Origin: Blasia pusilla
Lineage: Eukaryota
Assembly (NCBI GenBank): GCA_050084515.1
Contig: CM114271.1
Location: 28,520,001 to 28,584,000 of the forward strand
Length of the DNA: 64,000 bases
Direction of reading: 5' to 3'
The position numbers and the translations under genes are program-made. Under the pieces are notes generated by a model, which saw nothing but the letters and a program-made list of their open reading frames with translations, ran no database searches and had not been told where the DNA came from. Of this stretch, positions 18,990-45,960 are shown one piece after another (position 1 is the first letter of the stretch; each line of letters starts with the position of its first letter).

Positions 18990-18998
18990 GTAGAAGTC
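18990..18998 (+). other. Right 9-bp target-site duplication GTAGAAGTC
   Basis: Matches 7523-7531 exactly. Confidence 0.95.
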
Positions 18999-21900: not shown

Positions 21901-22724
21901 ACCCTGGACGTCGACCCACTTGCAGGGCAGGATCTGATGGCATTAGGAGAGCATGCGGCACTTTCCTAAATAAGAACTGTACAAGGACTGGACGACCACT
22001 ACCTCGATTTTGGGGACTCAAAACCTTTGATTGTTTCACGAGGATCGGGGATCAATTGAAGTACTTCTTCTGCCCAAATGACTCCTGCGCTTTCTGAAAG
22101 TCTTATCCAGCTGCCATTGGAGCTCCAGGGAATACCCCCCCAGTCTGGCCCATTGCCAAAGGTACAAATTGCACTCAAGAGGAAGTGGACTCAAGTTCCG
22201 GTTTCAGACTCGTAGACGGAGAAAGTTCGGAGCACGTTCGCATTACAGAGACCTTTGTATTTCGGAATCAACCCAAGATTGATGTCAATATGTACCTAGA
22301 GAAGGTGGATGATCTCAATCCACTATTTCTGTTTGAGTCTAGAAATGGGATGAAGAGAAACAGAATGTGTAGGCCAACGGCGGAGAGAGCGAAGCGAATC
22401 GCATCAGCTCGGGAGGCAAACATGAAAATCATCGCCACAAAAGATGTCTAGAGTGGGAATGGAATAGGAAGGATGTATTGGGTGAGGAACAACACTACAA
22501 ATTCAAGTGTCATAGGGGTGTATGTGGTGCACATCTGTTGCTTTCCCACATGTTCCTGTGATGACTTTGTCCAAAGAGAGACAAGTGGGAAAAGGTATTT
22601 TCCTTGTAAGCACATGTACTATGTGTTGCTTGTAGTTTTAAGAGAGTTGGAGGTAAGAGTAGGAATCCACCAACCAATTCTTTCCCTCAGAGAAGTGCAA
22701 AGTATTTTAAACAAACCACTTTGA
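18990..22724 (+). pseudogene. MULE-like transposase of copy 1, 3' part (DDE plus SWIM)
   Basis: Paralogous to 15386-18597. Intron 20209-21228 has a mutated acceptor (CAC). Multiple stops. Confidence 0.9.
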
Positions 22725-23112
22725 GGATGCAAAATGAGGTTCTTCACTTTGAGCTTGAACTCTATTCAGCCCAGGGAAAATGATAGATGTTTTCCAGACC
22801 TTGGATGGAAAAGTGATTTGTTCCACATTTATGATTCCAATGATTTTTCTATTTTTTAAATTTTATGAAAATTGCAACCCGTCGAATTTTGACGGGTTAC
22901 CAAAATGTGGAAGAGGAAAAAAAATGTGTGGGAGTGCCTAAGCACTGAGAATAAAAGTGCAAAAAAATTCACACAAAAATTTTCCTCTCTTCAACCCAAC
23001 AGAAACTCTCTTCAAATCACAGGAAACTCTCTTCAAAAAAATGTATCTCTTTCGGTTGAAGGTAGTTTCCTCTCTCCTCTCTTCCTCTCTTCCTCTCCTC
23101 TTACCGCTCCTC

Positions 23113-24219
23113 AAGTAGTTCCTGCACGCTTACGATATATATTGTGTGGTTCCGCCCGTGGTGCAGCCATGATGCTAGTCTGTGATGAGTGTTCGAGAGG
23201 ATGGCATATGGCATGTCTGACGTCACCTCTCGCTAGGGTTCTTGAGGGACGATGGATGTGTTCCAGATGTACATAAAGTAGATAGTTATAGATTCCGACT
23301 TGTGTCTATGATATGGATGACAAGAAGGCGACTAATGATGGGGCCACATGAGCACCCGGCCTTTATGCTCGTAGCGTCCGAGAGATGTATATAATGGTAA
23401 GTAGGGATATATGGCTATCTGGAGTTAGAGGGACCTAACCACCAATTACGGGGGAAATTGGAGATATTTTGGTACTTCTTGTCTCATTTTTTGGATGCCA
23501 TGAGTTAGCATGGGATCGTGTGTGTTTGTATGTATCTTCGTTGTCAACGATGTATGTTGTGTAGCGATGTGTATGTGCACGATAACTGTCAAGAATTTTA
23601 GGATAGATCGGCAAGATCTAGTAGAGGGCCTTTGGAGATAGTGGAGAAGAGCCTGAGGAGGTCGAGGATGACCTACTGAGGCCACGGGTAACCTGAGAGA
23701 GTAGGTTTTCCCTTTGTTTCGGCTTTGGAGCCATATAGAGAAACTTACTATTTTGGGTAAGTTTCTATCTGGAGTATAGTTGACTTTACACTTTGGGAAG
23801 GGGCCCTTGACCCGCTTCAGCAGGTCAAGAGCCAAGGGAGCTGACCAACAAGCATAGGTTACAGAGGAGAGCGCTTGGGAGAGGGAAGGGGATATACCTC
23901 CAAGAGAGAGAGCTTGAGAGCTCATTCTCTTTTTGTTGAACCTCTTGGCATGAGGCAGTGGAGCTATGGTTTTCCTTGCCTTGTGTGTGTAACCCAAACC
24001 TCTCATTAGGAGAGTGGGGTTGGTTTGACTTGAGAGAGAGTCCACACCATGGAGAGCTTGGTGTGAGATGTGATGAGAGATCTCATTAATTTATTGGAGA
24101 TATTTTGGTACTTCTCGTCTCGTTGTTTGGATGCCATGAGTTAGCATGTGATCATGCGTATTTGTGTGTATGTTTGTTGACAATGATGTATGTTGTGTAG
24201 CGATTTATATGCGTAGACA
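23113..24219 (+). mobile_element. 3' fragment of a PHD-finger Ty3/gypsy element: PHD, PPT and LTR (23459-24219)
   Basis: LCGSARGAAMMLVCDECSRGWHMACLTSPLARVLEGRWMCSRCT is followed by a purine tract, then an LTR with about 125-bp direct repeats at 23459-23584 and 24095-24219. Confidence 0.85.
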
Positions 24220-24589
24220 TACATGCTATGATAGATTTCTTTGATAGTTTCCGACGATCGGGATTACCATGGGATTTTAGTTCTAATATATATGAACAAC
24301 TTCGTATCAGTTTGATGAAGATAACTTATTGAATTAGTAACCGTAGAGACTTCAACCATCAGATCATGGTTTATCATCAAGGACTTGATGCTTTACAAGA
24401 TGATATGTATGGTGAAGATGTGCACAAATCTCTTGAGGGCAACACTGGTTTGGACAAGGTGAGATTGAATTTAAAAAGAGCTAGCTAATTTGGTGACATG
24501 AATTTTTTACTTCATCTTCATCTTAAGTCTAGTTTCTAGAAAATTTAGAAATTTTTGGTATTCATACTCGAAAGTTTCTTTTGTAGGCT

Positions 24590-25378
24590 GTGGAAACTGG
24601 AGTTAATGTGCTATCGAGTCACAAATTTGACTTAAGGATGATTCATTTTGAGGATCATCATCTCCCACTTTTTATTCCGACCCAAATGTTATTGAATGCT
24701 CAACTAGAGTTACAATTGAACTTGCAATCTGCTCTGATAGTATGCATGGCTTATGATGAGGCATTTCCAAAGGTAAAATCTCAAATTAAATGTACTTATG
24801 AAATGTTAGATTATATTCCCCAAAAAATAGTTAACATCTATCTAATTTTTCCATGCGAAGGACTAAGAAGAAATTTCTTTTTCTTTTACCATTTACCATT
24901 TTTTACTGAAGATCATGAATGTCTTGGCAAATCCTTCTGGTCTAGGAGATAGGTTTGGAGATTGGCCTATTTATGTCCGAGCAAGTTATGACTTCTTTAA
25001 CTCGCCTTACTTTAATAATATTGCAATCCAAGTAGAGGGACAAGAAGAGAATGCATTAACTTGGTATGGTCAATTGAGTTTACTTTTTGTGTGTGAAACT
25101 ACTTATCCCATGGGCAATAAATACAAGTGGGAGCTGCTTTGCTAAAAACCTATGAAAAGGTATCTTCCAATAGACTAACTAGACTTACATGATGTAAACT
25201 TTTCACTTGGAAACACGACAACATTCGAAGGAGGAATGTGATAAGTAACACGAGAAGAAATCTATCACTCCCTGATCCTTACATGGTAGTTGAGATAAGT
25301 AACATCCTTAGGGCAGTTCACGGGATCCTGAATTTTCAAGAGAATGATCAGTTTCTCTTAAACAGATTCACATTTTGA
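24590..25378 (+). pseudogene. Degenerate transposon-derived ORF resembling the C-terminal region of Plavaka/EnSpm-like proteins
   Basis: Pattern YVRASYDFFNSPYFNNIAI..WYGQLSLLF..YMVVEISNILRAVH..FLLNRFTF. The assignment is from recalled motifs only. Confidence 0.35.
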
Positions 25379-25419
25379 ATCAATGGATAATCAATACAAT
25401 GGAACTTTTTTTGGAAAAA

Positions 25420-25895
25420 ACATTGTAGTGGTGATGGAAATGCCATAATTGGTCGATATAAAATGGGATATTTAGTAATGGATCAATCTTGGAAAAAGAT
25501 TGAAAAGATATTATTTTAGTGTTAGAAATGCTATTAATAGTCGACTGATGATTTGATGTTGGGATATTTGATAATGGATTAGTGTTGAAAAAAAGTTGGA
25601 AAGACACTATTCGAATGTTGGAATGCCATCATTGGTCGATCAATGATAAAATATTGGGATATTTGATAATGGATTGATGTTGGAAAAAGTTGGAAAGATG
25701 CAACTTTAGTGTTGAGAATATCGTGGATAAGTGTTGGAAGATACTCTTCTAGTGTTGGAAATGCCATTATTAGTCAATTAATGATAAAGTGTTGAGATAT
25801 TTGATAATAGACCAATGTTGAAAACTAGTTGGAAAGACACTATTACAATGTTGGAAATTCAATCAATGATATAATGTTGGGATATTTGATAATGG
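25420..25895. repeat. Degenerate AT-rich tandem repeat, about 95-bp unit
   Basis: GGGATATTTGATAATGG...GTTGGAAAGA recurs at about 25466, 25561, 25656, 25795 and 25879. Confidence 0.8.
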
Positions 25896-25909
25896 TAAAT
25901 GGTATATGG

Positions 25910-27722
25910 TAAATAGATCAAGCCTATGAGACCCAAAGGCTCAAAAGGCTAAAAAACACTTTACAAGTAATACTTTGACTCGGAAAAAGACCCTAAAGGC
26001 CTTCTCTTAGCTAATGCTTATAATACTTGAGCGATGAATAATGATATCCCTAATATAACAACGCACTAGCTGTAGCAAAGAATAGAAATTCTCCGCATCT
26101 ATTTTATGAGCTAGTCTCTTCATACCTTGGACATGTAACAAACGCATGCTCTTCATCCTCAATACTTTCTCCATCACATAACCTACAAATTCGTTCACTT
26201 CTATCAATGTTGAGCCATCGTCCTTCCTCAATTCTTGGTCTATGAGACCCAATTCTATGTCGTGCGATAATATGACGTATGACCATGGAGATCCCCGCAA
26301 GTAGGTACCCTTGTTCTCAATATACAAGCATACGATTAACATGAAGTTGATAAAAATCCATTTTTGTACCCGGGCTCCTCCAAATAATGTTCAGAAACTG
26401 CTTCTGTAGATGCTCGCGGAGTGCCATCGGTATCAAGTCCCAATCACGTTCCGCCACATTCCACTTTGAAGACCAAGCCACCACATCTGCAATCCCCCCT
26501 ATGGAACGTGTGGCTTGCAAAGCTTCATGAGGAAAGCAAGAAATATCAAGAGATCTCACCCTTGCGATATAAGTTTAGGATGGAGGATTTTTTCACAAGG
26601 AGAATATCATAAGGAGTTTGGTTTCTCACACCCAATTCTTCTTGTATGAAGATCTTTTGCACCCTCTCCACACGCTCCCTACTTGTCTTCTTACAACTAG
26701 GATCCCAAACTTGGATCCCATATAAGACCACCGACAACACTAAGCTCCTAAATAAGAACTTCCTAAGATCCCAAGACACACGATGAGATCTTCTACACCA
26801 ATTTAGAAATGAATATAGAGCTTTGTAACGAGCTTCTACTCTCTTTTGCACGCAAAGTGCCCAACTATAGTCATGAGAGAAATCAATGCCTAGATATTGT
26901 GACTCTTCACTTGTTCTAATTGTAGACCTTTGTAAAAACATGAGAACTTGGATCTAGTACCTATTATAATGACTTTAGACTTCTCCATATTAACCTCCAT
27001 CTGATTCTGGGTACAAAAACTTGCCAAAGTGTCGAGGTGTTTTTTTAAACTAATGCCATCACGTGCTAGTAGTATGATATCATCTGCATAGAATAGAGCT
27101 TTAATGACAAAGTCTCCAAGCTTGACGCCTTCACTGTCACATTCCTCCAACCACTTTTTGATATCATCTATGAAAACTCCAAAAAGTGTAGGGGAGAGAG
27201 GGCAACCTTGAATGACTCTGATAGTACTCAAGATCTCTTGAGTTTGTGAATCTTTGATCTTGGCCAAACGGAATGGTACAACGTGGCCACGGCAGCGAGG
27301 AGATTCGGTGGTACCCCAATGGCTTGCAGCCTATCCCATAAGAGCTTACGAGATACAATATCAAAAGCTTTCTTGAAATCAATGTAACCGTAAAACAAAG
27401 CTTTCCCATTGCCCTTAGATTTCTCTCATAAAACACGTAAGACCAAGATATGGTCGATGGTGTTGTACGTTGGGCAAAAACCAGCTTGGACCCGTGCTCT
27501 CTTTTGGAAAGACTCCATCCATGCGCTCATTTTTCACTCCACCAATTTCCCAAACACTTGGGCAAAGACACTACCCACCATGATAGTACGATAGTTTGTC
27601 ACCAAATCCTTCCTTCCTGATTTGTGAATAGGAAAAATCTCCCGTGGCGACCAAGTAGAAGGAAAACCATAAATATCAGCATCACCCAATACTTTGGTGA
27701 GGATCGGTCCAATAGAATCTTT
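25910..27722 (-). mobile_element. Non-LTR retrotransposon (LINE) 3' part, 5'-truncated and disrupted
   Basis: RT motifs PIHKSG..NYRTI, QGCPLSPTLF, LFYADDI and YLGI. C-terminal HRxGIEEGRW..RICRLC..EDEEH..CP zinc motif. Confidence 0.9.
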
Positions 27723-27724
27723 TT

Positions 27725-28218
27725 TTGTACGCCATGTCATCTTCCAAATGTGGATGGTATTGTTGACCCAAGCTTAGCCATGATACGTGCTAGCTTGAAG
27801 TGCATGTTGTGTGGGTCTGCTGGTAACGTAGCCCATATGTTGGTATGTGATCGGTGTTCTAGGGGTTGGCACATGATGTGTTGAGCCCGTATGGATGTTG
27901 TTCCTATTGGAAGGTGGGTTTTTCTCCGATGTACTTAGGAGGGATAGATGACTTGATCTTTGCATGATATGGATTAGAGATGTGCGAGTAACGATGGGGC
28001 AACCTAGCACCCGGCCTTCTGATTCGTACACCCACGAAGGTGTATAACATGTAGTAGATGTATAGGGCTACCTGGGAGTTAGAGGGACCTAACCGCCAGT
28101 TAGAGGGGGCGAGTTGTGGTTCACTTGTATTTGTGTATGCTCTCGTCTATATTATGTATGTATGTGAGAATGGTATGTCAACGATGTATGTTGTATGACG
28201 ATGTAGATTCGCACGACA
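27725..28218 (+). mobile_element. PHD-gypsy 3' fragment with a single short terminal unit (28114-28218)
   Basis: CHLPNVDGIVDPSLA..CMLCGS..LVCDRCSRGWHM. The same GAGTTAGAGGGACCTAACC-PPT junction as at 23420. Ends GCACGACA. Confidence 0.82.
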
Positions 28219-28870
28219 CTCGTCTCCCTCATCAAGCTTTGCGAGCCACACGTTCCATAAGATGGATTACGGATGTGGTGACTCGGTCTTCAAAATGGAA
28301 TGTGGCGGAACGGCATTGGGATTTGAAACCAATGGCACTCCGCGAACATCTACAAAAACAATTTCTCAACATCATTTGGAACAATGCGGGCACCAAAATG
28401 GAGTATTATCAACTTCATGTTAATCTTATGCTTGTATATTGAGAACAAGGATACCTACTTGCGGGGATCTCCACATTCTTACGTTATATTTTCGCACGAC
28501 ATAGAAGTGTGTCTCATAGGTTAGGAATTGAGGAAGGACGATGGCTTAATATTGATAGAAGTGAATGAATCTGTAAGTAATGTGACGGAGAGAATATTCA
28601 GGATGAAGAGCATGTGTTTGTTATATGTCAAAGGTATGAAGGGATTAGACTAGCGTATAAAATAGATGTGGAGAATTTTTATTCTTTACTTCAACTAGTG
28701 CCTTATGATTTAGATTGCTATATTAAGGATGTCATTATTCATCACTCAAGTGCTCTAGGCAATAGTTAGAAGGTCTTTAGGTTCTTTTTCCAGGTCAGTG
28801 AATGAATGACTTGTAATGTGTTTTTTAGCCTTTTGACCCTTTGAATCCCACGGGCTTGATATATTTATCA
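28219..28870 (+). mobile_element. LINE 3'-end fragment, same family as 25910-27722, opposite orientation
   Basis: PHQALRATRSI..SKWNVAERHWDL.PMALREHLQKQFLNIIW matches the minus-strand copy at 26317-26530. Confidence 0.88.
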
Positions 28871-30225
28871 TATACCATGTGGTGTAACGATGTGTATTTG
28901 CAAGATAATAGCAATGACAATCCAAAGAGCTTGACATTCTAGAAGTTGTTAACTCTCACGACCACACTAAACTGGAAATATTCCTCAATCTCCATCTCAT
29001 AACGCCTACATCCAACCTTAACAATAATTGCTAGTATCTATGACTAATTAGAATTCACATTTTCAACCTGAAATATCAAGTTGATGGCCACCATCTGGAA
29101 ATTGCACCCCAAAATTTCATTCTCTTCCTTCAGGCATTCTACCTCAAATATATATTATTGTTAGAGGATACCTTTCTTGATTTGCAAACAACTCTCTAAT
29201 TGACATATTTCAACCGGGCAGCAAAACAAGTTTCTTTTATACGGGCAACAAGAAAGTAATTTCTATTCCAAAAGAAAAACATTTGCATCTAACATGATTA
29301 GTATTCACTCCCATCCATGACACAAGCTTCACACTAGTAATACAGAAGTTAGTGATATAATCATACACACATTTACACCATCCACAATTGTAGGGATGAA
29401 AATCTTCAACACTTGGGCCACAATTGTAGCCCAAGCCTTGCACACAATTGAATAGATGAAAAAAATTGTGATATCATGCATCCATGAAGTTAAGGTCCAT
29501 TTATCATTGTTGCGTCCCCCGAGCAAAAGGACCATTTTCCCTAGATTGCTTTACTTTGTATAGAAGCTTTTTGCCTTCCCATTTATAGTAAGCCCCTTCC
29601 TTCTTTGATAGTAAATTTTTTTGCCATTTTTCTTGAATAGAAAACTTGGCCTAGGCTTCATTGCTTACATAAGCCCACTTCCCACAAGAAGTATCATTGT
29701 GCACAATTTGCAAATCATCATTGCAAAATCTGAAACTGTATCATCAGCAGACCATGCATCTACACAAAAGGGATCGTTAGACAATTGTCAAATTGCGCAA
29801 TCACACTCTAATCACCATTTTGTTTACAAAGGTCATCACCACTTGTTCATGGTGGAGCGCCTAGCATAGCAGCGAGTTGGGATTAACCTGGAGTGTCATA
29901 ACCTAACATATGGACCGCTCAGTCATCTCCAGGAGATCAGAACCCACATTTGATTGATGAATTCAAAGATGTCGCATTTCACCAAATTATTTTTCAAACA
30001 GAATCTATGGGTATTCTTGTCTGCATCCCCATCATGCAGAGCGAAGGGACTTTCGAGTGATATTTCTGTGACCATCTATGGCCTGCGGAGCCTGAGGGGA
30101 AAGTCCCCACTGTGTTGAGGAGCAATGGAAGCTGAGCATTCCACTTCCTCATGAAAATGATGACCGCTGATAGCCAAATCAAACATAAGCTCGCACTAAG
30201 AGGTGAGGTTTTGTATATCTGAGGC

Positions 30226-31909
30226 TTACACTCGAGACCCCTTCCCAAGTTTCGTCTCAAACAGCCGTTGCAATAAATATACTTGCAAAAAACTGCAGGC
30301 CATGATAGCCACTGACTCCAGCAAAGCTTTGTATATAACTCTTTTACTCATTGTTTCATTCACTGCACCAAGTCAACACAACGGTGCTTAAAATCAGGAC
30401 ATGGCTATACTTCAAGTTTTGATTCCAGACTACTATTTCACCGAATCAAATAACATGGGGGTAGCAATAATACGAGATTGGAGTTTGGAAGCATACTGAT
30501 GGCTTGATGATCAGTTTGGGCGGAAAGCCAGTGCTGCTCAAATCGAACTGAATAGAGAGACTCCTCTAGTCTGGCGATCTGTATCATCAACGGATCAAAA
30601 TGTTCTGTACCAAACAGTTTAATCAAGGGTATCAGAAGGCCACATTGGCAGTGGAGTACGAGCACCGAGATACCGTATCTTCCCCAAACACTCTGGGCTG
30701 GCGCGATCTACCTGAACGGAGATACATGAGAGAAACGCACAAAAGAAAAATCTCCGTAGATTTGCAAATTACTCGGCCTTGAAAGAAATTCCTCCCAATA
30801 GACACGAAACAGACGAGCAGACGTATGATCCCCGTGAAAGAAATTCCTCCCAATAGACACGAAACAACCTTTACAACTATATTATGCTGCGTCTATGCGC
30901 AAAAAGTTTTCCATTCGGTGCTAGCAATATAAACACCAAATTTCATGAGTGGGTAGATAGGTTAGCCAAACTATATTTCTCATGCCGAGTACTCCCAAAG
31001 CACCTGATGCTGTGATGATTTTGAGATCACATTGAATACAACTCCTAGGCTCTATCGATACCCCAGACTACAACCCCTTCTGTTACCTGCCAGTTGGCCT
31101 TTTAATGCCAATATGACAAGCGAAGTCCTGAACTGGAAAACCGTATAGACCAAAGGATGAAGTAGCACCATACCAGGTTTGGCACGTTCTTCTCGAGTGG
31201 GAATGTGCCCAACACGGACATCGAAATCGATCGTTTCATGCATAGGAGAGATGTTGCTGAAGCAAAACTTGTAAAATCCTCTAATATTTGCCTCAAAGTC
31301 AAATTTGTCTTCATCCTTTTGCTTTCCAGAGTAGATCAGACGTCCCTTGGGCGACTCCACCTGCATCGGAGTCCCGGCCCACACAGAGCCATCCCATTGA
31401 AATGCAACCTTCAATACCTCTCTGGAGAACTCCATTCTACCTTCACATAAATGGGACAGACAGATCCCGTATCTCTCGAAATTGTATTTCAAAGATTCCA
31501 GTAGATTTCCGAACCAGATGAGGGTCGCCACAAACAGAATTACCAAAAAAAGTGGACAAGTCACAGACATTTACACCCTAATCACACTACTCAACTTCTT
31601 CTCTCTCGCAAACTCTACTTTCAATCGAGACCTCTGAAGCGACCAGTGGCGTCGGTTGAAAGATTCTCTATTTGAAACCCATTAATTGAAAAGTTTACGT
31701 ACCGTCAGATCGACCCCAAGACGATTGAAAGTCCAAGGATTATCAGATTTTATGACAACAAAAGAGACATCAACTTTATCATATTCGTACTGAACTTCGT
31801 GAGAAAAGCACTCCTTCCTGTCAAGAACAAATCGCACTGCCTGCACCTGGACTAACACCATCCACAAAGCCAGCGCCAGGGACAGAACAAGATTCAAATC
31901 CTTTCCCAT
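30226..31909 (-). CDS. Transmembrane emp24/p24 family protein, p24beta2-like (212 aa); exons 31909-31703, 31360-31174, 30604-30497, 30362-30226
   Basis: Signal peptide, then a GOLD domain (VRFVLDRKECFSHEVQYE, YKFCFSNISPMHETIDFDV), coiled coil (EHFDPL..FEQHWL), TM helix and C-terminal LFETKLGKGSRV*. All introns are GT-AG with consistent phases (639 nt). Confidence 0.96.
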
Positions 31910-32354
31910 AGCTTTCACTCGCCTGCTGAATCTTTCTTTCCTATGTTCGCTACGTTTTGGTAACTCTCTCCTGGCGGCAAGGTGGACCGAAGACGATTTC
32001 GTCCTTGTAGTGGATATGTGCGCACTCTACAATGACGGAACAGGACTCCAATATTCTTATTAGCCCTCGCATATTTGACAAGCGGATATTTCCTTTGTGC
32101 GATCGGCATGGCTCGCTACGCCCAAACAAGTTCTCCATGTTTTTTTCATTTAGTCTCCCTATATTAAAAGTTTGATAATTATTTTCTCCCCACCAAGTCA
32201 AGAGCTACAGAGGAGTGCCGACAACCTCATGAGGGAGGCGTGGAGTCATGCCTTCATCTCAGAACAGCGAGAGTCACGTGGCGATCGGGCTCTTGGAGTG
32301 GAGACGTTGACCCCACTGGATACCACACCCGTTGTGTGGCAATGCCCAGAGGAA

Positions 32355-33310
32355 GGTGTTGGGGTGTTAGATCTCTTCGGAGGGAATAGCACCGGATTGG
32401 CTGCAGTATTGCAGGCAGGCATACGGGTGTATCATTACCTTTATGAGGAGAGAAAGGAGACCACGCGGCGAGTATCAATACGTCATGTGGCCAGATTGGT
32501 CTAGAGGTATCTTGAGTTGTTGACGGTATCTGCAGTACAGGGATATCAGCATACACTACCCGTCGACATCTCTTTGGTGGGGGCGCATGATTTGGATAGA
32601 GTTGGCACCATTCATTTGGTGATTTCTGGATGGCCATGTCAAGGTCATTCATCAGCTGGCCGAGGATTTGGATTGCAAGATCCGAGGTCAGGGATGTTTT
32701 GGGAGATGCTGCGAGTAGTACAACATTTGCAGGAGAGTCAGACATGTTCTCCAACGTAAATTTTGGAGAACGTGCCATTGTTGGGACACACTCGTGCACG
32801 TGTGATGACGAGTGTGCATCAGGTGAGGTCCTGGTTGGGACCTGCTGTGTTGTTAGATGCAGCGAGAGTTGGATCACGTGCCCATCGTCCACGACTATGA
32901 TGGAGGAACCTGATACCATCAAGGGTACTAAGTCGAGCATGCGATGGAGTCCAGAGAGCACCACATCTCACAATGGATGCTATCTTGGGCTCAGGGCATT
33001 GATCTCAGGTGGTGACACGGGATGATAGACCACCGTTTGCCATGGCCAATAGGGTGGAGGAGTTGAAGGCAACCTTACCTACGTTGGTGAGCTTCCCAGC
33101 ATCCCATGCCTTTTGTCAGGGAGGGCCAGGCATGATTTGGGATGAGGTGACCGGAGCATTGGAGGAGCCTACAGCAGATGAGCGCAAGCGCGCCATGGGG
33201 TTCGTTACAGGTACTACGGCGGTGCCAAGAATGACTGAGGTATCTTGGAGACAGGTGTTGGGGCAGGCGATGGACCTCAATTGTCTCACATGGATAGTCA
33301 ACCTAGGTAT
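32355..33310 (+). pseudogene. C5-cytosine DNA methyltransferase domain (DNMT3/DRM-like) in a retrotransposon polyprotein
   Basis: One reading frame with a few stops contains motif I VLDLFGG (32370), IV ISGWPCQ (32628), VI ILENV (32766), VIII AHRPRL (32886), IX DERKRAMGF (about 33180) and X VLGQAMD (about 33260). Confidence 0.9.
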
Positions 33311-33687
33311 GGCTGAGGAGAGATGGATGCGAGTGACACCCATGCCGTCACGTCCACGAGATGGACCATTGCCTACAGGGTCTCTACAGGCATTGGCTGG
33401 GGGCAAGACAAGGAGAGATAGGCACCCATGGACTTCCTGGGACATCATTCGAGCGGAGAGTGCGAAGGCGGCCAGAGTAGCACATGTTCATTTTTTGGAT
33501 GTGGAGCATGGTGGAGGAGGTCATAGTGGAGTGGCTCTTGCGGAGGTGGCTAGGGTTGCTACATAACAACCAAAGCCGGAGGTGGCATCCTCTCTGAGTG
33601 AGGTCACGATGGAGACTTGGGAGCCTGTGATAGGACTCAAGTTGACAGGAGGAGAGCCATGGCGAGTTCATAGGTTTCTGAGAGGGC

Positions 33688-36629
33688 ATGCCCTCTCCTG
33701 ACGGGATACGGATTGAGTTGGCTAGTGATACGCCAATCTTTCGTCGATCCTACAGGTATTCTGATATGGAGCGAACCTTGATTCAGAGCAGGAGGCAGGA
33801 CTTGTTGGAAGCAGGACTTATGGAGTTATCACATGGGGAGTATGCATCTGCCACAGTCATGCCGGCGAAGAAGGATATGTATGGCAATTGGACGGATAGA
33901 TGGATGTGTGGAGATTACCGTCCTATCAACCAACACACGAGGTCAGATCAGTACGCCATGCCTACTCCTGAGGAGATCTTTGATGCGGTAGGGCATGCAA
34001 AGATCTTGAGTACTTTAGATCTCCGTGTTGGCTATCATCAGCTTCCTATCAAGTTGGAGGACAGGGAGAAGACAACATTCTGGGGGATAGATCGGTTCGG
34101 GAGAGATTGCTTGTATCAATGGTGGTTCTTACCTTTTGGGTTGAAGAACGTGCCTACAGAGTTTCAGAGAGTGATGGATAGGATTCTAGCTGGCTTGGAG
34201 TTTGTACGATGTTACATAGATAATATTCTTATCTTCAGTTCCACGGTTGAGGAGCATGAGCGACACGTGGAGGAGGTGTTTCGGAAATTGCAGTTACATG
34301 GACTGAAGTTACAACCAGGCAAGTGTAGATTCTTTCAGAAGCAGATTGAGTATTTGGGACACACCATATACCCGAGTGGATTAGGCGTTCAGCAGACAAA
34401 GGTAGAGGCTATTGCGTAGATTCCACGCCCTACAGATGTGAGTCGAGTCCGAGCAATTCTTGGACTGACGAACTTCTATCGACGGTATGTCAAGGGTTTT
34501 AGTGCAATCGCAAAGTCTTTGACCTTGTTGACGAGACTTGATCAGGTTTGGTTGTGGGGAGATGATCAAGAGCGAGCATTTCAGGAGCTCAAGGACAGGT
34601 TGAAGTCCTCACCCATTTTACACAGATCGGTTAGGGATCGCCCATTCCAATTACATACGGATTGGACCATGTTGGGTCTAGGAGCAGTGCTTACTCATAG
34701 GGATGATGAGGAGAGGGATTTCGTTGTGGCTTACGCGAGCCGATCGAACAACATTGCAGAGGCGAAGTACAAATCCTACGAAGGAGAGTGCTTGGCTGCA
34801 GTGTGGGCCATGGCACATTTCAGGTGCTATTTATTCGGCAACCCTTTCACACTTATCATTGATTATCAGCCATTCAGGTGGTTGATGGATTCCAACAAGC
34901 TTACGGGAAAGTTTGCCAGGTGGGCTCTATTACTACAGGAGTATGAGTTTGAGGTGGTTCATAGGCCAGGTTGGCTGAACCAAGATGCGGATGGGTTGAG
35001 TCGTAATCGAGTCAGAGAGACGACAAAGTAGCTCGATGGCACGGAGAGAGTGATGAGGAGATGGTGCCCGGTTGGCATGCATCTGACTATCTTTGTTGGT
35101 TGACTCTGGCAGGTCAGCCATAGGTGATGACTCCAATGGTGGGGTTGGATGATGAGTCTTTGGATGCGGAGGTCAATGAGGAGGCGACAGGTGGTCGTGA
35201 TTTCCATGACGACGTGGAGGTTGTAGAGTTCTTGTGCATTGGCGTCATAGCAAGCACATTGAGTGCTAGGGAGCTGGATCGGATCCTACAGAGAGCCAGG
35301 AGGTTCAGATGGGAGGGGACTCACATTTTTCGGGTATGGGGAGATGGTAGGATACGAGTGGTACCTCATCCTTCATAGCAAGCACGTGTAGTGCGACACG
35401 CCCATGAGGAGTTGGGACATTTTGGAGTGAAGCGTACTTACAGCTTACTCCAGATTCGGAATTGGTGGCGCAGCATGCATACTGGGGTACAGCAGTTTGT
35501 GGTCAGATATATGGAATATGACAGAGTGCGAGCATCCTTCAATGCTCCCACTCCGCAATTACATCCTTTGCCGATTATGGGTTTAGGTTATCGGTGGAGT
35601 TTAGACTTTGCGGGACCTTTGTCATTGACTGGGCGTCATCATAGTTACGTGTTGGTCATGGTGGAGCATTTCTCCAAGTGGATATAGTTGGTGGCACTAC
35701 CGGACAAGGCGAGCGAGGGAATAGCTTATGCATGTCTAGATCGTCTGCTTAGTCACTTTGGTGCACTGTTGGAGATGTTGACTGACCAGGGTATCAAGTT
35801 CATGGGAGAGTTTCAGGCCTTGTGTGATCAGGCACTGATAGATCACCGCACCACGTCCAGAGATCATCCTGAGGCAGATGGGTTGGCGGAGAGAGTGGTA
35901 CAGACGGTGAAGAGAGAATTGCGCAAGTATGGCTTGCAGCGAGGACAGTTGAGGGAGTGGGACCTACAATTGCCATGGTTGGCTATGGGTTATCGCTTTA
36001 GTCGGCAAGCATCCTTGGCGTCATTTTCACCGTACTTTTTGCTCTTTGGGAGAGATCCAGATTTACCTGCATCCATTCGACATGACATGGCGGAGGTGTT
36101 AGATCTTCATGATCCAGATGTGTGGGTACAAGCATGTTCTCAGAGGGCGGAGGTTTTTCGTAGAGTTATGCCTATGGCCTTTGAGAACTTAGCTATTGCT
36201 TAGCATAGAGATACATTGAGGTACGCGACCATTCGTGGAGGAGGTTATCGTCCAGGGATTAGGAGGTTTCATCCTGGAGATTACGTATATTTACAGCATG
36301 GGGCACCCACGACGCTAGATGTCACTACAGGGCGGACGCGAGGTATTACCGACCGGAGTCCTCATGTTGGAGGGACGAGATGGTATGGTTTGGAAGGATC
36401 ATGTGCGCAATTGTACGTCATGTCATCTTCCGAACGTAGACGAGACGGTGGATCCGAGCTTGGCAGTGGTACTTGCAGGCTTGAGGTGTATGTTGTGCGG
36501 ATCTGCGAGGGGTACAACCACCATGTTGGTATGTGATGGTTGTTCTCGAGAGTGCCATATGTCATGTCTAACCCCCCCCCTCTTGATGTGGTTCCCACAA
36601 GACGATGGATGTGTCTGAGATGTGTATAG
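33688..36629 (+). pseudogene. Gypsy pol: RT, RNase H, integrase and C-terminal PHD finger
   Basis: RT: CGDYRPIN, LDLRVGYHQ, LPFGLKN, YIDN. RNase H: LHTDW, YASR, NQDADGLSR. INT: HEELGHFG, WSLDFAGP, LTDQG, GLAERVV. PHD: CMLCGS..VCDGCSRECHMSCL. Confidence 0.93.
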
Positions 36630-36707
36630 GGTAGTAGGTCATGTCACAGAGATATGATACTTTCTATCTGGAGTTGGGAGGATCCAACTGCCAACTAGGG
36701 AGTCGGT

Positions 36708-37464
36708 TGTGTGATCTCCATGTATATGTATGAGTTGATTTTTGTACATGTGTGGATCGACTTGTGTGTGGGGAAGATCGGTGTTGTGTGGTGTAGATAT
36801 GACCAACGATGTATGTTGTGTAGTGATATGTATGCGCATGACAACTGTCACATCTGGGTAGCCGATAGGCCGAGATCTATCGTGGATATGGCGTAGGAGC
36901 CAGCGGATTATCCTGAGTGTAACTTTATCCCACTATGTCGTATGAGGTTGAGGATAGGTCCATTGTGTCAGGAACGTTGTTTCTGACAACTTTCATGTTG
37001 AGATCTTTCACAACCGGGTGACTTGTTGACCAAGTCACCCACCCCTGGTAATCTGTGCGCGCAGGTTACCAAGGGGAGGGCTATTTTTAGGGGAAGAGCT
37101 TTTTGGCTCTTCCCAACCTTATATAAGAGAGGAAGGTGGATTTCCTAAGCCATCTTTCTCATGTTGGGCCGTTAGGGCACCTCTCTTGTATGTGAGTGAG
37201 ATAGGGTTGGGATGCTAGCGTCCGGATTCCTTGATAGCACAGGGTGGACGAGGTTCGATATGCCGATGTAGATTGATGAGTGAAGTTTTAGACCGGGTGT
37301 GTCATTTTTACTACTCTTTATTTTTAGTTATTTGATCTTCATGTATATGTATGAGGTGATTTTTGTACATGTGTGGATCGACCCGTGTGTGGGAAAGATC
37401 GGTGTTGTGAGGTGTAGACGTGACCAACGATGTATGTTGTGTAGCGATATACATGCGCACGACA
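36708..37464 (+). repeat. 3' LTR of the DNMT-PHD gypsy, with about 135-bp direct repeats at both ends
   Basis: 36708-36843 is near-identical to 37333-37464. TATATAA lies at about 37120. Confidence 0.8.
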
Positions 37465-37606
37465 CATATCATATCTAAGCCTCTCTCTTGGTGCAGTTTC
37501 CACATAACAACACTTATGTTCCAAATTTGTACAGGGTAGTAAACCATGTCGTGTTGATGTGTGCTAACTAGAATTAGAGGACCCAAGCACCACTTACGAG
37601 GACGAT

Positions 37607-38267
37607 TGTATAGTTTTATTGTTCATACAAGATTCTATTTTTTGAGTGCATGTAGATCTATCAGAGTGTGAGGAAGACCGATGATGTGTAAATATGATCT
37701 ACGATGTGGATTGTATATCTATGTGTATGCGCACTACAACTAACACATCTTAGTTAGTTAGTAGACAAAATTCTACCAAATCGATGACGTAACGAGTCAA
37801 CATGTTATGTAAGAGGTCTGGAGGTCTCTGATAAGATTGATAACTCTGGTATGTTGAGATTGTCAATGAAGACAATTCTCCTCTTTTGCTATTTTGGATT
37901 AAATGTCTTGCTGACCAAATCAAAAATCACCCTACAACACATGTGCATTTAAGATTAGTTTTTGGGAAAGATCCCTCTAGTACTTTGCACAGATAAAAAG
38001 ATGAGGGGAAAAAATTCATAACCCATATTTCTCATATTGAATTTAGGGTTCACTAGGAGCTTAGAAGCTAGAGTTCAGATATGGATTGATATGCCAATGT
38101 AAACTCAAAAATGAATTTGACCATGTATAATGTTTTCACTTTGATCAATTTACTTCCATGATTATTTTTGGATATGCTCGCAACTACCTATGTGTCAAGA
38201 TGAATGATATTTGATACGTACATATGATCAACAATATGGATTGTAAAATGCATATATGCGAACGATA
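37607..38267 (+). repeat. Older degenerate LTR of the same gypsy family
   Basis: Preceded by a diverged GAATTAGAGGACCCAAGC-PPT junction. Diverged terminal units end GCGCACTACA and GCGAACGATA. Confidence 0.55.
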
Positions 38268-39859
38268 GAGAATACTTACAAATAGAAGCGCAAATGTAGA
38301 TATGGCCTCTCGTCATTACTTATTGCTTTTAGTCATAAATTATCACATTTTTTAGTTTCTGTTTGGTTCAAATAGTGAGTCAATATAAGGATATCTCTTG
38401 TGAAATTCATTTTTCAACACTCGTAAGACTGGTTAAACATTAATGGAAAGAAAAAACTTGAAACCTCATCATCGAACAAGTCCATTGCTTAGCCTCTAGC
38501 TTGAAAGACAATTCCACCTCAAGTCACTTTAGTGCGATTCAATGTAGGACAATCTTTGCAAGTCTAACAAGGAGGGAGTAAAAGATTCTGTTGTCACTAT
38601 TTCAATGACGATAGAATCTTTTACTGACGATAGAATCGTGAATATGGATTTACTTAACTCTGCTACTTCACACAACCTGACTTTTTTTAAGTACAAAAAT
38701 AAATTCGGAACAAGGAAAAATCAATTTGGTAGATCAAATACAAAAAGTTTTTTGAATTTTAACTAAACCACTAATATTACTTTTAATATTTAAACTTATT
38801 GGTGTACCTGCTTGAACTCACTATGTATATCCCCATGGTGTGTTGTACACTCGACTCTTGATATTGTGAAACACGAACAAGTATAGGTTGAGAACCCATT
38901 GACACTAAAGGCAGGGGTTAGTTAGCAAAGGTCTTCCATTCACAATCTCTGAAGTTTTAATGTAACAATGAATCCTCAAAGATCATAGGTATAGAATTCT
39001 CAAGTACCTCTCTCGTATAGGGGATTGTACATGCTATGTGACGTGTAGAAATAGAGATGGGAAGTGGGCAACCATAATGTCTAAAGATTGTAGAATCTCT
39101 GATTGAGGGTTTCCTACAATGTAGTGAAGCCTTCAATCAAGCTTGGAGGCGAGACCCGCTACCCTATTTTCTAATGCAAAACACTAAGGCCCAAACATTC
39201 CTTCCCAAGGTAAATGGCTAATGGACACATTTATGAAATAGTCCTAGGCTGATCAGATTGCGACTCAAAAGCAGGTGGAGAAAACCTAACATTTCTAAGC
39301 AATGCTGTAAAATAGGATAACCATAACAAACATGTCTTTATTTGAGTCATTAAGAAACATAATCCTAGATTACACAAATCCGGAAACATATGGTTCATTG
39401 CAAAATCTGCCACACTTTTGCTAATGTGTCATGTGGCACTACACAGCTGAGAGATTCGATAAATCTCCTCTCTAGTACAACCCACCATCTACATCATGAA
39501 GAGATCGGGCATAGGGTTTACTCTCGTGTTGACAGCTTCAAAATTTTATAAACTGCTGTTTCGATCGTTACTGCACTCCCCGGGTACACATCTTTACAAC
39601 ACTTGGATGATTAGCTTTGATGAAAGATGAGCCCAGCTCAAATTTAGACTTCATGGCCAGGCTGAACGGTCTTCCAGCCTGTGTCACTCATTTCCTCTGT
39701 GCAACCAATTTAAATCATTTTAGATGTAAGTCTCCGAAGGACATCAATAATTCCAGAGAGATCAGTTATATTGCCTTCAGAAAGGATCATGACAATAACA
39801 CTTAGAAATGCATTCCAAGATTGGCTGATAGCCCTTTTAGTTTGCAGGAACTCTCTGAG

Positions 39860-41107
39860 TGTCATCTTGAAACCTAAGGAGAGTCACATCATGATTGTGG
39901 ACCCATTAGACAATTGACCTAGAAACTGATTTGCTGATCGTGAACATGCTGAAATCCTGGATGAAATAGCTGATGCCAGTTCTGATTTTGTACAAGGAGA
40001 TGCATCTGCCGGTCTACTTTATCAACAGGTTATGGGTACACCCCAAACCTTTCTCCTTGGTAATTTCAGTGGTAAACAGAAGTTCAATGGAGGAAACTAT
40101 AGAGAATGGTCCAGAACCATGATGAAACCTCACAAACTGGAAGAGCTCGTGCTAAACTTTGCTTGCAGACAGGAAAATCAGTCAGCAGCCATCTTCTGAC
40201 TGAAGTTATTTGAGGTATTGTTTGCCGAGTTCTCCAGTGCAGTTGTACCAGATATTGGATAATTTACTGGTCAACAAATCACGGGTGCACTACATGGTTC
40301 ACAGTTAGTGCCTTGGAAGCAACTCAGAAGCTGGTGATAATGATGGAGATGTCGATTGGTCGTTACAAAACTTAGAAAAAACATTAAGATACGTCCTGTT
40401 GTGACATTTGCTTGAGAGATGACCTGTCCAAGAACAAATGAAGCAGAAAGTCTCTTTGGTTTTCCCCTAAGGAGTCTTCCTAGAAGGCTGGGTAGCCACA
40501 AAAGGTAAAGAGCACTTCCTACTAGGATCATATGGAGAATTGGAAGAAGGACATTCTCAGAGTTTGGAGGAGGTTTTTCTAATTCAGAATCACTGACAAT
40601 TGCAACTTTAAGGTCCTCAAAAAAAGGTCTATTTCAACATTAAACGTGGATACAGAGCTTGCTACAAGCAATAGTGAAGGTTTGTGAAGATCTGAGGCTG
40701 AATACATGGCCCTCACACATGCCACCAAGAGGTCATATGGTTGAGAAGACTTCTTGGAGAAGTTGGACACAAACAACCAGATCAATTGTTAGATAACATG
40801 GGCAGCATTCACCTCAGCAAAAATGAGGCACACCGACCTTCAATATAATTTCATCAGAAAGCAGATTGGGAAGGAGGTGGATTTGGACTTCATCCCCCCT
40901 GAAGATACCGCTACCGCTGCTCTCACTAAGGCATTAGCTAACAAAAACATAAGAAAAGTTTGCACATGCTTGGCTTGCTTTTGGACATGTCAGGAGTGGG
41001 ATTGTCGAGAATGCAGTACATTTCAAGACAGAAAACATGTCCACTGACTGCATTGGGTAGAGAAATCAGGCAGGTAATATATTGAATTCGTACTGACTAT
41101 TGTTGAT
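39860..41107 (+). mobile_element. Heavily degenerate, internally deleted Ty1/copia relic related to LTR family A
   Basis: The LTR end at about 40027 is similar to 41640-41789. It is followed by a GGTTATGGG PBS, a gag start (KFNGGNYREW), RNase H remnants (EAEYMALTHA, HTDLQYNFIR) and a GGAGTGGGA PPT. Confidence 0.65.
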
Positions 41108-41789
41108 TGTTGAAATTTGTTAATATCTAGTTTAGTCATGCTCTAAAAATAGTTAGTCAAATACTAACTTAGTTGGATACTAATTTAGTTAGCTAGAGAT
41201 AACTTAGTGTTCCTCTATCTTTTAGGGTAACCTTGAATTAGGGCAATTCTCGAGTTAGGGTTAGCCACCATCTGTTATTTAGGGTATGGATCTGTTCAAG
41301 AAGATCTAAGGGCCAGAAGTGCTCACCCTGATGTATATAATGTCTCTGTTTAGAGAGCAGAAGCCAATTCTACAGCATGCACAGTTTTGGTGAGGACTCC
41401 TGAGGCTCTTGGTCCTGCTGCAGAGTGATCAGAGAGTAGGAAGAGGAGATTGAGACTAATTGCTGTGCTTGCTAGAGCCTCACTGGAAGGCAGGTTGTTT
41501 TGTCTAGTATGCTGATGGAGATTGTTTGTGCTCAATGGTGAGCCATGTCTGATCTCTGAGCTGGTGACATGTGAGGACCTGTAGTGTGAGTGCAAGGTGT
41601 GGCTGAGTAGAATCTTTCTTAGTATCTCTTAGATAGTAAGAAGAGTCACATCATGGTAGGGCTCTGATTTGGCAATAGAGATAGGAACTGATTTGCTGAT
41701 TGTGTACAAGCTGAAATCATGGATGGTCTAGCTGATGCTAGCTCCGACTTTGTACAAGGAGATACTTCTGCTGGTCAATCATATTCTCA
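41108..41789 (+). repeat. Copia LTR family A (682 bp, TG...CA) without a matching TSD
   Basis: Near-identical reverse complement of 47574-48255. Flanks are TTGAT and CAAAC. Confidence 0.92.
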
Positions 41790-44038
41790 CAAACTCACTG
41801 TTGAATCTTGCAGATCATCTCGAGATTTTCTGTCACAACTCAAGATTATTGCAAATAATCTTGCATCCGCAGGATCTCCTGTTTCAGACACATCTCTATT
41901 CACTTTTGCTATTAGCAGACTTCCTGCTGAATACAAATCTCTCATTCACGTATTGATGCAGAAAGATAAACCTTCTTTTGACGATCTTCAAACTGGAGTA
42001 CTGTATGATTCTGAACTAGATAAACCTTCCAATTTTGAAAGTATTCTAGTTTCCAATTCTATTGATAATTCTACCAGGAAACGTCCATTTCAGTCTATAT
42101 CTACTCAGTATCAAAGAAACATTCCTCAGAGGAATGGAAAACAGCCTTACTGTTACATTTGTAACGAGAAAGATCACATCTCCAACAAATGTCCTAACAG
42201 AAAATTTCTCAAGAAATTCCGTGAGTACTGCAAAACTCAACCAGAAGATACCTCATCTTTACTACTCAATACTTCACCTATCACTCAAGCATTAACATGC
42301 TCCACATCTGAGGAACTACAACCAGATGAACCACTCTATCTATTCATGATACAAAGATCCTCTACATCTACTTTCCCAGATCTTTCCAAACTTTGGATCC
42401 TTGATTCGGGTTCAAATTCCCATGTTTGCTGTCAAAGAGAACTGTTCTCTAATTTCCTTCCTATTTCTCCAATTCTCATTTCTGGAATAGGCAATGGCAA
42501 AATATATGCTACAGCTACTGGGAATGTTCAATTAAAGCTTTACTACAGGACAGCACAATATTGTTTCTGTGAAGAAACTTGCTGAAAACTCTATAGATAC
42601 CCTTTTCTATTCTCACAATATGTCTTTTGAACTCATCAAGCAAGGTCATTGTTTAGGTACAGGCTTTGCCAGGCATGGCATGTATCTAATTGAATGTCAA
42701 TCTTGTACTCCATCGACAATTTTGATAGCCAGAAGTTCATCCAATCTCTGGCACAATCGTATGGGACATCTCAACAATCAGCATTTATTGCAACTACATC
42801 AAAAGAAAATGGTTCAAGGTCTAGATCATGTCGATGATCTCAATTTCTGTACAAGCTGTGCTAAAGGCAAGCTCATCAGGCAACATATCACAGGAGATGG
42901 ACAAGATCTTCCTGTTCAAAAGGCTCTAGATCTGATTCACAGTGATCTGGCAGGACCAATGAAGACACCCAGTATTGGAAACGCCTACTATTTCTGTACT
43001 TTTCTTGACCAATATACAAAGAAATCCTTTGTCTATATTCTTCACAAGAAGTCAGATGTCTTTTCTACATTCCAGAAGTTCAAAATCATGGTTGAGAAAG
43101 AAACTGGCCTCCAGATTCGTGTTCTCAGAACAGATGGAGGTGGTGAATACATAGACTCTTCTTTCCAAGTCTTTCTGCAGACTTTTGGTATTCTTCATCA
43201 ACGCACAGGAAGAGATTCTCCTATGCAGAATGGATCTGCTGAAAGACTCAACCGCACACTACAGGAAAAGGCAAGATGTATGCTCATTCACATGCGCCTT
43301 CCTATATCATTTTGGGGAGAAGCAATTGTTACAGCTAACTATCTTCGGAACTTGAGTCCTACTCAAACTCTTTCAACAACACCTTCTGAAGCTTGGAGTG
43401 GTCTCAAACCTACTCTCACACATCTTCGAGTGTTTGGATGTCAAGCATTTGCTCTCATTCCAGCTGAGAGAAGAAGAAAGATGGATTCTACGGGTGAAGA
43501 TGTATATTCCTTGGTTATCAGATTGGTTCTAGATGTTATAAACTTTTCGATCCCAATACAAAACGTGTTTTTCTCAGCAAAGATGTTGTCTTCAATGAAG
43601 ATACTCCTTTCTCCTTCTCTCCTGTTTTTCACTCTACTTACTCTCCATTTTTTGATTATTTCCCAGTAGAAAACTCTGAACCGATAACTGTCCCTAAAGC
43701 AGTAAGAAAAACTACAGTTCAGACAAATACTGAAATAGTGGGAGATACTTCAAGAGAAACAGGTGCTGTTGCTTTAGAGAAATCCATGGGACATCTGCCC
43801 ACGTCTTTTCATCCTAGGCGATCATCACGAACATCTGTACCAGTACATATGTATGATGCTGCTTGCTCAAACATTCTTCTCTCTTCTTGTATCCAATCTG
43901 ACCCACTCACTAGAACAGAAGCCCTCTCTAGATCAGATTCTCATGAATGACAAACTGCTATGGAAGCTGAAATTGCCTCTCTTCATGAAAACAAAACCTG
44001 GATTCTTGTGACAAACCCAAAAAAGCACAAGTCATCCA

Positions 44039-44431
44039 TGTTAGATAAATACATTTTAGATAAAGGTGTTCGACTTAAAATGTGTTAAAGGAACTACCTA
44101 AATGCTGCTACTCTTAGCAGTCCGACATCTAAGCTAAAAGGGTCACTTGGCCACTTGGTCAGCTGGCCACTTGGCCACTTAGTCACTTGGCTACTTGGCC
44201 ACTTGGTCACTTGGTCACTTGGCCACTTGGTCAGTTGGCTAGTTGGCCACTTGGTCACTTGGTCACTTGGTCACTTTGCCACTCAGACTATTTTGTCTCT
44301 AGCCAATATCCAGATTAGTATATAATCTGGGGCTTGAATAAACATCAGGTTTGAAGTTCTCCATTAAGCTTAGTCGCAGCTTTACCATTGTATCATTACC
44401 ATTGTGTCTACATCTCTCATATAGTTTAACA
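44039..44431 (+). repeat. Solo LTR of family B (393 bp) inserted in element B pol, with 5-bp TSD ATCCA
   Basis: TGTTAG...TAACA, flanked by ATCCA at 44034-44038 and 44432-44436. Internal 9-bp tandem repeat of CACTTGG(C/T)-type units. Confidence 0.93.
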
Positions 44432-45960
44432 ATCCACAGATACTACCAATATAGTCTCTTGTAAATGGGTTTTTAAGATCAAGCGGTCATCTTCAGGAAG
44501 TATTCTCAAGTACAAAGCCAGGCTGGTAGCCAAAGGTTATTCACAGAAAGAAGGAATTGATTACAAAGAAACATTTTCTCCTGTCATAAATATCACTTCT
44601 CTCCGGATGCTGCTTTCCATTGCTGCTGTTCGCAATGCTGAACTACATCAAATGGACGTCAAGACTGCTTTTCTTCATGGTGATCTACAAGAAATCATAC
44701 ACAAGCATCAACCTCCCGGTTTTGAGGTAACTCATCAAGGTCCACAGGTATGTCTTCTGAAGAAAGCTCTTTATGGCTTGAAGCAATCCTCCCGAGCTTG
44801 GTATCAAAAGATGGATGGATATTTGACTTCTGCAGGTTTTTTCAGAAGTACTTATGATCCTTGTTTGTATCACAAACGATCTTCTACAGATCAATTACTC
44901 ATAATTGCTGTATATGTAGATGATCTTGCTATTCTAGCAGATAATCTCATTCAGCTACAACAATTTAAAATTCATGTTCAGTCCATTTTTAAAATGGTTG
45001 ACATGGGAGAGCTTCATCACTTGTTAGGACTTCAGGTGGTAAGAGACAGGGCACATCACAAGATTTCTTTGCACCAACAAAGGTATATCTGTGAAAAACT
45101 GGTAGAATTCGGTATGAAAGATTGTCATACAGTTTCTACCCCTTCTGTGCCTGGGACAACATTGTCCAAGCCCACATCTGCTCCTACAAGTGATGATCTT
45201 GCTCATTTTCAGCAATATCCATATGCTACGATAGTTGGAAGTCTTATGTATGCTTCAACCATGACTCGTCCTGACATCTCTTTCAGTGTCGGCCAGTTAT
45301 GTAAATACATGTCCAACTATTCTATTGAGCATTGGCAAGCTGCCATGCATGTTCTAAGGTATTTGAAGGGAACTTCGAATATGGGTATCACCTTTGATGG
45401 TTCCACCCATGATTTTACTCTTCAGGCCTATGCAGATGCCAGTTTCGCTTCTTCTAAAGATGATAGAAAATCTATTTCAGGATTTGTTCTTATCATGGCA
45501 GGAGGTGCAGTACATTGGGCCTCAAGGAAGCAGACAGTTACTGCACAGTCTACTACAGAAGCTGAATATATAGCCTTTAATGAGGCCACCAAAGAAATAC
45601 TTTGGATTCGACATTTACTTGCTGAGATTGGTTTTTACAGCAACTCCAACAATTCTTTACGAAGACAATCAAGCTGCAATTCAACTATCAAATAATTTTT
45701 GTTCCAATTCCAAAATCCGACATTTGGAACTAACATTCTTCTTCATATCAGAACACATTCAACAACAAAATATTCGTCTACAAGCATGTAGATCCTCAGT
45801 TCAGGCTGCTGATGTTTTGACTAAAAGTCTATCTAAAGACCAACATTATTTCTTACTCCAAATATTAGGATGTAGGATATGCAACTGAGTGGGAGATACG
45901 ACTCTTTTCGAGTAGACAGCTGCATGTTCTTCCAGCTAGATTATCCTAGCTCAGTGGGAG

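Follow-up and report, generated by a model that had tools for sequence, protein, structure and literature searches.

Organization of the element copy

The locus lies in a 64-kb stretch of Blasia pusilla DNA (hereafter the window) and holds the remains of a retroelement on the + strand. ORF1 is represented by a remnant at 32196..33563 (+), which consists of a linker and a DNMT3-type C5-cytosine methyltransferase domain with its core at 32355-33310. The frame from 32154 (+) was translated with X at the stop codons, giving a 470-residue stretch. The read-through of this frame contains motif I (..DLFGG..G, about 32367-32396), motif IV with PCQ (32628-32651), motif VI with ENV (32760-32777), motif VIII (RAHRPR.., 32871-32903), motif IX (..ERKRAMGF, 33165-33203) and motif X (GQAMDLN, 33261-33281), all on the + strand. 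The first-pass annotation, made from the letters alone, had reported six ordered C5-methyltransferase motifs in one frame, PCQ and ENV included, and all six fall within 32355-33310. A Pfam search, set beforehand as a test of that assignment, supports a C5-methyltransferase: PF00145 matches the domain at 37.3 bits (curated cut-off 22; E 2.7e-9). In a BLASTP comparison, the Marchantia polymorpha protein P0077 shows 60% identity over 438 residues (E 8e-167).

The domain lacks introns and is the only methyltransferase copy in the whole window (n=1). Four in-frame stops lie inside it (32502-32504, 32757-32759, 32898-32900 and 33000-33002), each in a column that is a sense codon in intact relatives according to the P0077 alignment; with these stops the domain has no open frame able to give an enzyme.

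The ORF1 terminator is a TAA followed by CAA CCA (stop-CAR-YYN, 33564..33572, +). Behind it lies the N-terminal tail of ORF2 (33573..33700, +), which is still in the ORF1 frame; the frame shifts afterwards, and other copies differ in length by 11-14 nt at 33690-33705. The reverse transcriptase (RVT_1) and RNase H follow at 33682..35031 (+) with in-frame stops at 34417-34419 and 35029-35031, and show 65% identity over 434 residues to ORF2 of the intact relative L032. The integrase, with an H2C2 zinc domain and the rve core, lies in a different frame at 35124..36203 (+) and has in-frame stops at 35376, 35685 and 36201. A PHD finger at the integrase C-terminus (36319..36618, +; PF00628, 30.2 bits) needs a further frame change and is cut short at its end, and some DNA reads show a 2-nt length difference at 36572. 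The Pfam domains RVT_1, RT_RNaseH, Integrase_H2C2 and rve thus stand in gypsy-type order on the + strand. At least three frame changes interrupt this pol region (one near 33690, one in the interval 35031-35124 and one ahead of the PHD finger), while the same region in L032 is a single open frame of 1047 residues.

Reverse transcriptase homology begins near 33700, about 420 bp after motif X, in agreement with the spacing of roughly 400 bp on the same strand given by the first pass. Translated in frame 0, the sequence past the stop is still similar to the N-terminal part of L032 ORF2, so this gap is made up of the end of ORF1, its terminator and the start of ORF2.

At the other side, homology to P0077 and P0002 starts at read-through residue 15-18, corresponding to about 32196-32205. 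A search for the gag-protease part of P0077 in the three + frames of 28154-32153 gave no match (best E 1.7, 2.3 and 12); gag and protease are gone from this copy, yet they are present in relatives. Neither the in-frame stops nor the missing upstream gag and protease had been recorded in the first-pass annotation.

The truncated end is about 240 bp from the transcript start of a divergently oriented emp24/p24 GOLD-domain gene (30400-31960, -), identified by Pfam and found to be expressed and spliced in three RNA runs. Its introns, as mapped by RNA reads, span 30605-31173 and 31359-31700, and its transcripts begin near 31960. A word-based search with a p24 exon turned up no matching protein. No other host gene was confirmed in the 64-kb window.

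Element termini

No LTR pair was found around the window copy within 24000-44000; its 5' end has been lost, so that neither an LTR nor a 5' copy of the repeat termed A below (A1) can be demonstrated for it. The 3' end retains a set of direct repeats. A purine-rich tract follows the PHD finger directly ahead of repeat B1 (36700..36845, +; the 150-nt unit B at 36706-36855), which is followed by the LTR-like unit A2 (36846..37311, +; ends like those of unit A in the related locus L051, boundaries judged by eye) and by repeat B2 (37312..37476, +; unit B at 37327-37476), 88% identical to B1 over 150 nt. The element probably has its 3' end at B2. A junction from 37325 back to 36706 is carried by 37 reads of the DNA run, which makes this A-to-B junction a common one among family members.

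L051 has a single unit A on its 5' side and B-A-B on its 3' side. Unit A of this locus opens with TG and closes with CA, and the element as a whole may be flanked by a 4-bp duplication. L010, L031, L045 and L039 have B-B pairs 377-455 nt apart, located 3.4-4.5 kb past the methyltransferase. Altogether, B-A-B was found in five of the 16 related loci searched, with the 5' A copy in L051 only; L043 has a different layout with a tandem unit of about 462 nt, and neither B-A-B nor the tandem unit was found in the other 10 of these 16 loci. A third, more diverged post-PHD tract with unit B lies directly past the element end of the window copy (37520-37750, +), which suggests stacked 3'-end remnants.

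Sequence and fold of the methyltransferase

The family methyltransferase is of the DNMT3 type as judged by sequence comparison and by its predicted fold. When P0077 was compared with PDB sequences, 25 of 27 matches were DNMT3A/B/C. A family profile built from 18 sequences gave DNMT3 chains as the first 29 of its 57 PDB matches (E 5.7e-26 to 4.7e-20), followed by six plant DRM chains and then by HhaI, HaeIII and DNMT2; no DNMT1 or chromomethylase (CMT) chain appeared at E 0.01 in this profile search. The AlphaFold (AF2) model of the intact domain from L004 has a mean pLDDT of 73.8 and a pTM of 0.74, with a confident core at residues 33-379. Foldseek with this model returned DNMT3A/B/C in 34 of 34 cases among the matches listed (best E 1.9e-19), with target-normalised TM values of 0.79-0.83 for catalytic-domain chains. 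In 19 aligned relatives (28-63% identity), the catalytic Cys-Gln and the Glu-Asn of the ENV motif are invariant, and the Val is nearly so.

Cellular DNMT3A/3B/3C and plant DRM are accordingly the best matches by sequence and fold, and the motif order I-X is that of DNMT3. Unlike the cellular DNMT3 enzymes, the element carries neither a PWWP nor an ADD domain beside the catalytic domain, and the identity to human DNMT3A is about 22% in a structural alignment. DRM is permuted and matches the element domain only in part.

Relatives and the structure of intact elements

Word-indexed searches yielded 75 near-length and 31 longer relatives. Marchantia polymorpha accounts for 14 of the 31 longer ones; the other named relatives come from Calypogeia fissa, Riccia sorocarpa, three Sphagnum species and Closterium, and also from Scenedesmus. 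Liverwort proteomes contain family members with intact reading frames, and Sphagnum proteomes contain related predicted proteins that are mostly shorter or partial. P0028, a relative with 45% identity, bears a bacterial MAG label (Candidatus Obscuribacterales), probably because a eukaryotic contig was misbinned. An exhaustive profile-free search gave 2227 cluster representatives at E <=0.001 and 194 at E <=1e-30, many of them 1000-3400 residues long.

Twenty-nine long relatives, picked by length from the search lists, were scanned for domains. Retroelement domains were present in 26 of them at E <=1e-5. The methyltransferase stands before the reverse transcriptase, or after CCHC and protease, in eight, and between RNase H and integrase in 17; a PHD finger is located at the end of 11. 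In P0103 an integrase core is the only retroelement domain seen, so that it falls into neither arrangement. The methyltransferase was seen within the element polyprotein in the loci L032, L041 and L071 and in the proteins P0117, P0084, P0096, P0106 and P0107.

From 138 relatives found by a metagenome scan, 80 were retained, and 14 loci were checked for long ORFs. Ten of the 14 are degraded. L032 is intact: a 1369-aa ORF1 is followed, after one stop, by a same-frame 1047-aa ORF2 with reverse transcriptase, RNase H, integrase and PHD finger. Its ORF1 contains PF00145 at 51 bits and a weak protease match of 22.4 bits, below the cut-off of 24.3. L041 resembles L032 and has the same ORF2. The first pass had proposed to look for intact copies with gag, protease, methyltransferase and reverse transcriptase in one ORF. 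P0117 is a single 2188-residue ORF with CCHC, DNMT, RT, RH and INT; in L032 and L041 the parts are spread over two stop-separated ORFs.

The sequence around that stop is conserved. A stop-CAR-YYN arrangement between ORF1 and ORF2 occurs in all seven loci read (L032 at 5083-5091, L041 at 4661-4669, L004 at 11357-11365, and L007, L014, L003 and L061) as well as in the window; the stop is TAG in six of the loci and TAA in L004 and the window. UAG-CAR-YYA is the leaky-stop context of the tobamovirus type.

In intact relatives, ORF1 thus codes for a CCHC-containing Gag, for an aspartic protease and for the DNMT3-type methyltransferase; after a stop with CAR-YYN, a same-frame ORF2 codes for reverse transcriptase, RNase H, integrase and a C-terminal PHD finger. 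Their termini are read as split direct repeats in the order A ... B-A-B.

The second design, RT-RH-DNMT-INT-PHD, is commoner among distant relatives. Its members are P0105, P0113, P0126, P0130, P0131, P0133, P0136, P0137, P0139, P0141 and P0148 and the locus L071; P0131, from Scenedesmus, is annotated as 'pol'. These green-algal and metagenomic elements share the methyltransferase clade (E down to 1e-50) and the PHD-tailed integrase with the family described here, and differ from the window copy in having the methyltransferase between RNase H and integrase instead of before the reverse transcriptase. The two designs among relatives indicate that the same methyltransferase clade occupies two places in gypsy polyproteins. 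A second methyltransferase motif suspected in the tail of P0105 found no Pfam support at E up to 1 and was discarded.

Copy number, transcription and decay

Three RNA runs and one DNA run with the same species label were compared with the window, the DNA run being sampled at about 1 in 100; none of the runs listed as containing the stretch is recorded as RNA, and small shares in runs labelled air metagenome were left aside. In the DNA sample, no reads fell on 1.6 kb of the single-copy p24 region, and the element was covered, in summed depth, at about 5-83 per bin over the methyltransferase and at up to 231 in pol. The DNA reads numbered 3455, and 3387 of them are 95-99% alike to the window copy. 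This depth, together with the likeness of the reads, indicates that many other copies in the same genome include the methyltransferase part, and the copy number of the gypsy-DNMT3 family in this genome is high. The genome itself looks large and repeat-rich, given one expressed host gene confirmed in 64 kb and the absence of DNA reads on that gene in the sample.

RNA depth over 32038-33675 was zero in the three runs, except for about one in a single bin in two of them. The supported loose ends in this interval (8 reads each, run X22) match over a short stretch only. Over the reverse transcriptase and integrase the RNA depth was 0-7; these reads are 95-99% alike to the window copy, show the differences also seen in the DNA reads and run in the direction opposite to the p24 reads, and for these reasons they are assigned to other copies and are sense to the element. 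Thus no transcripts of the window copy itself were seen in the three RNA runs, and the family is partly transcribed in this genome.

Among 265 places at which the window copy differs from the reads, 142 are G-to-A or C-to-T in the window copy and 47 are in the reverse direction. Only one of 20 listed transitions lies in CpG (contexts judged by eye), so the decay is not CpG-specific.

The first-pass reading of the locus as a Ty3/gypsy element with a C5-methyltransferase upstream of the reverse transcriptase agrees with the RT-RH-INT-PHD series on the same strand and with the linkage shared by relatives. We consider it very probable that the region belongs to one dead Ty3/gypsy-type copy of the Gypsy-DNMT3 kind and represents its methyltransferase domain. 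The copy is a fossil with no function of its own. The suggestion that it could methylate its own cDNA or insertion site fails for this copy, which has lost its 5' part, is interrupted by stops and gave no transcripts at the sampled depth, and therefore cannot methylate anything.

Comparison with known systems

Retrotransposon-borne DNMTs are on record for dinoflagellates and for a charophyte alga (PMC5890265, available text), as the first-pass annotation had stated. The nearest described system is KnitGypsy-Dnmt3 of Klebsormidium nitens, reported by de Mendoza et al. 2018, the available text of which makes no mention of liverworts or Marchantia (PMC5890265). According to that text, KnitGypsy-Dnmt3 has, like the family described here, a gypsy-type pol and an intronless, non-rearranged DNMT3-type domain inside the polyprotein (PMC5890265). 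The Fig. 4 legend describes the repeats of the Klebsormidium element as laid out DIRS-style (PMC5890265, available text), and the B-A-B 3' end seen in the window and in five related loci agrees with such DIRS-like repeats. The PHD finger and the leaky-stop context found here do not figure in the KnitGypsy-Dnmt3 description, as far as the available text extends (PMC5890265). KnitGypsy-Dnmt3 comes from a charophyte, while the named relatives found here are from bryophytes and green algae, and no Klebsormidium nitens sequence was among the named search matches. The suggested kinship with KnitGypsy-Dnmt3 is drawn from the common design and the published description, and not from a tree or an identity value.

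SymbioDIRS-Dnmt3 and SymbioLINE-DNMT are dinoflagellate retrotransposons with C5-methyltransferases and are treated in the same available text as independent acquisitions (PMC5890265). Their backbones are unlike that of the present family, the first being a DIRS element with a tyrosine recombinase and the second a LINE (PMC5890265, available text).

Another parallel is provided by the chromoviruses, Ty3/gypsy elements with a chromodomain on the integrase. They have, as here, a histone-reader module at the integrase C-terminus; unlike in the chromoviruses, the reader in the present family is a PHD finger, and the element also carries a methyltransferase.

Proposed role of the methyltransferase in intact elements

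The ORF1 stop of intact elements is presumably leaky, in which case Gag-PR-DNMT would be the main product and readthrough would add reverse transcriptase, RNase H, integrase and PHD finger. On this view, output of the methyltransferase would match that of Gag, and RT-IN would be scarcer. Cleavage by the protease would free the methyltransferase from the polyprotein, leaving an abundant enzyme that could be carried along with the particle proteins. Because it is expected to travel in the polyprotein, we propose that the methyltransferase most likely modifies the double-stranded cDNA of its own element or the newly inserted copy. The PHD finger of the integrase may steer integration by histone state.

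The main rival to self-methylation is that the family methyltransferase acts in trans, on host chromatin or invading DNA viruses, or else is a non-catalytic DNA-binding module. The idea of an element methylase acting on invading DNA viruses has been voiced (PMC6338049, available text), and placement in ORF1 predicts an abundant free protein; the non-catalytic version is at odds with the invariance of the catalytic residues in 19 relatives. We regard this rival as a whole as rather unlikely.

A second alternative concerns the window copy and not the family, namely that the host still makes use of it, through a methyltransferase that has been domesticated or through a contribution to the promoter of the divergent p24 gene. 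The truncated end does lie about 236 bp from the start of an expressed and spliced gene, but four stops interrupt the domain, the RNA runs cover it at a depth of zero or about one, and the 142 GC-to-AT changes among the 265 differing places are as neutral decay predicts, which makes continued host use highly improbable. The third alternative, that a host DNMT3 gene or pseudogene came to stand beside an unrelated gypsy pol by chance, could appeal to the missing gag and protease and to the different frames of methyltransferase and reverse transcriptase in the window copy, but we give it hardly any credence because the same order recurs in single or stop-separated ORFs of relatives, the ORF1 tail, stop context and ORF2 N-terminus are all kept in the window, and the domain is intronless and multi-copy in the same genome.

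The first pass had allowed that the adjacency would be fortuitous if other members lacked the domain; it is present in the same polyprotein in relatives and in other copies in the same genome, and the adjacency is not chance.

Occurrence in land plants

According to the available text of a 2019 opinion paper, land plants such as tracheophytes lack methylase-encoding transposons (PMC6338049). Two later papers (2025 and 2026), citing de Mendoza et al. 2018, speak only of 'streptophytes'. A literature search covering the full text of articles found no description of the family in bryophytes, although supplementary files may list such sequences.

The first-pass annotation had supposed that the phenomenon would be extended if the host were a land plant. 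The family does occur in Marchantia, Calypogeia, Riccia and Sphagnum proteomes, but these were already public and the extension is only in part news from the window. Within a type of element already known, the family forms a land-plant branch; public bryophyte proteomes already contain it, apparently without its having been discussed.

A wider claim is put forward more tentatively: a gypsy lineage whose Gag-protease ORF includes a DNMT3, whose ORF1 stop is leaky, whose integrase ends in a PHD finger and whose direct repeats are split may perhaps persist and multiply in land plants. If so, it would contradict the absence of methylase-encoding transposons from land plants stated in the available text of PMC6338049, and an element-borne DNMT3 could add to plant genome methylation. 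The land-plant members of the family, those of Marchantia above all, offer tractable material for asking what an element gains from methylating DNA itself.

Other features of the window

The window consists almost entirely of repeats, with several unannotated ORFs; Rfam and tRNA scans gave no match. A set of long ORFs occurs in two tandem copies at 14575-23276 (+) and has no Pfam match at 1e-4. One of the ORFs in this interval (17068-18597, +) shows a SWIM-like Cys/His pattern, judged by eye, and a PHD-like ORF that follows the tandem ORFs (22893-23276, +) is 69% like the gypsy PHD region 36465-36634 at the DNA level. The tandem ORFs may represent an unclassified transposon sharing the PHD module.

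A second PHD-finger fragment of this type, at 27621-27884 (+), is 74-76% identical in DNA to 36411-36546 and sits between inverted LINE-like pieces at 26317-26574 (-) and 28104-28442 (+). Other mobile elements in the window include a Helitron helicase-like ORF, a LINE reverse transcriptase, two copia pol regions and another gypsy protease-RT, at 1359-2951, 26893-27330 (-), 41692-45692, 48490-51119 and 61522-63000 (-).
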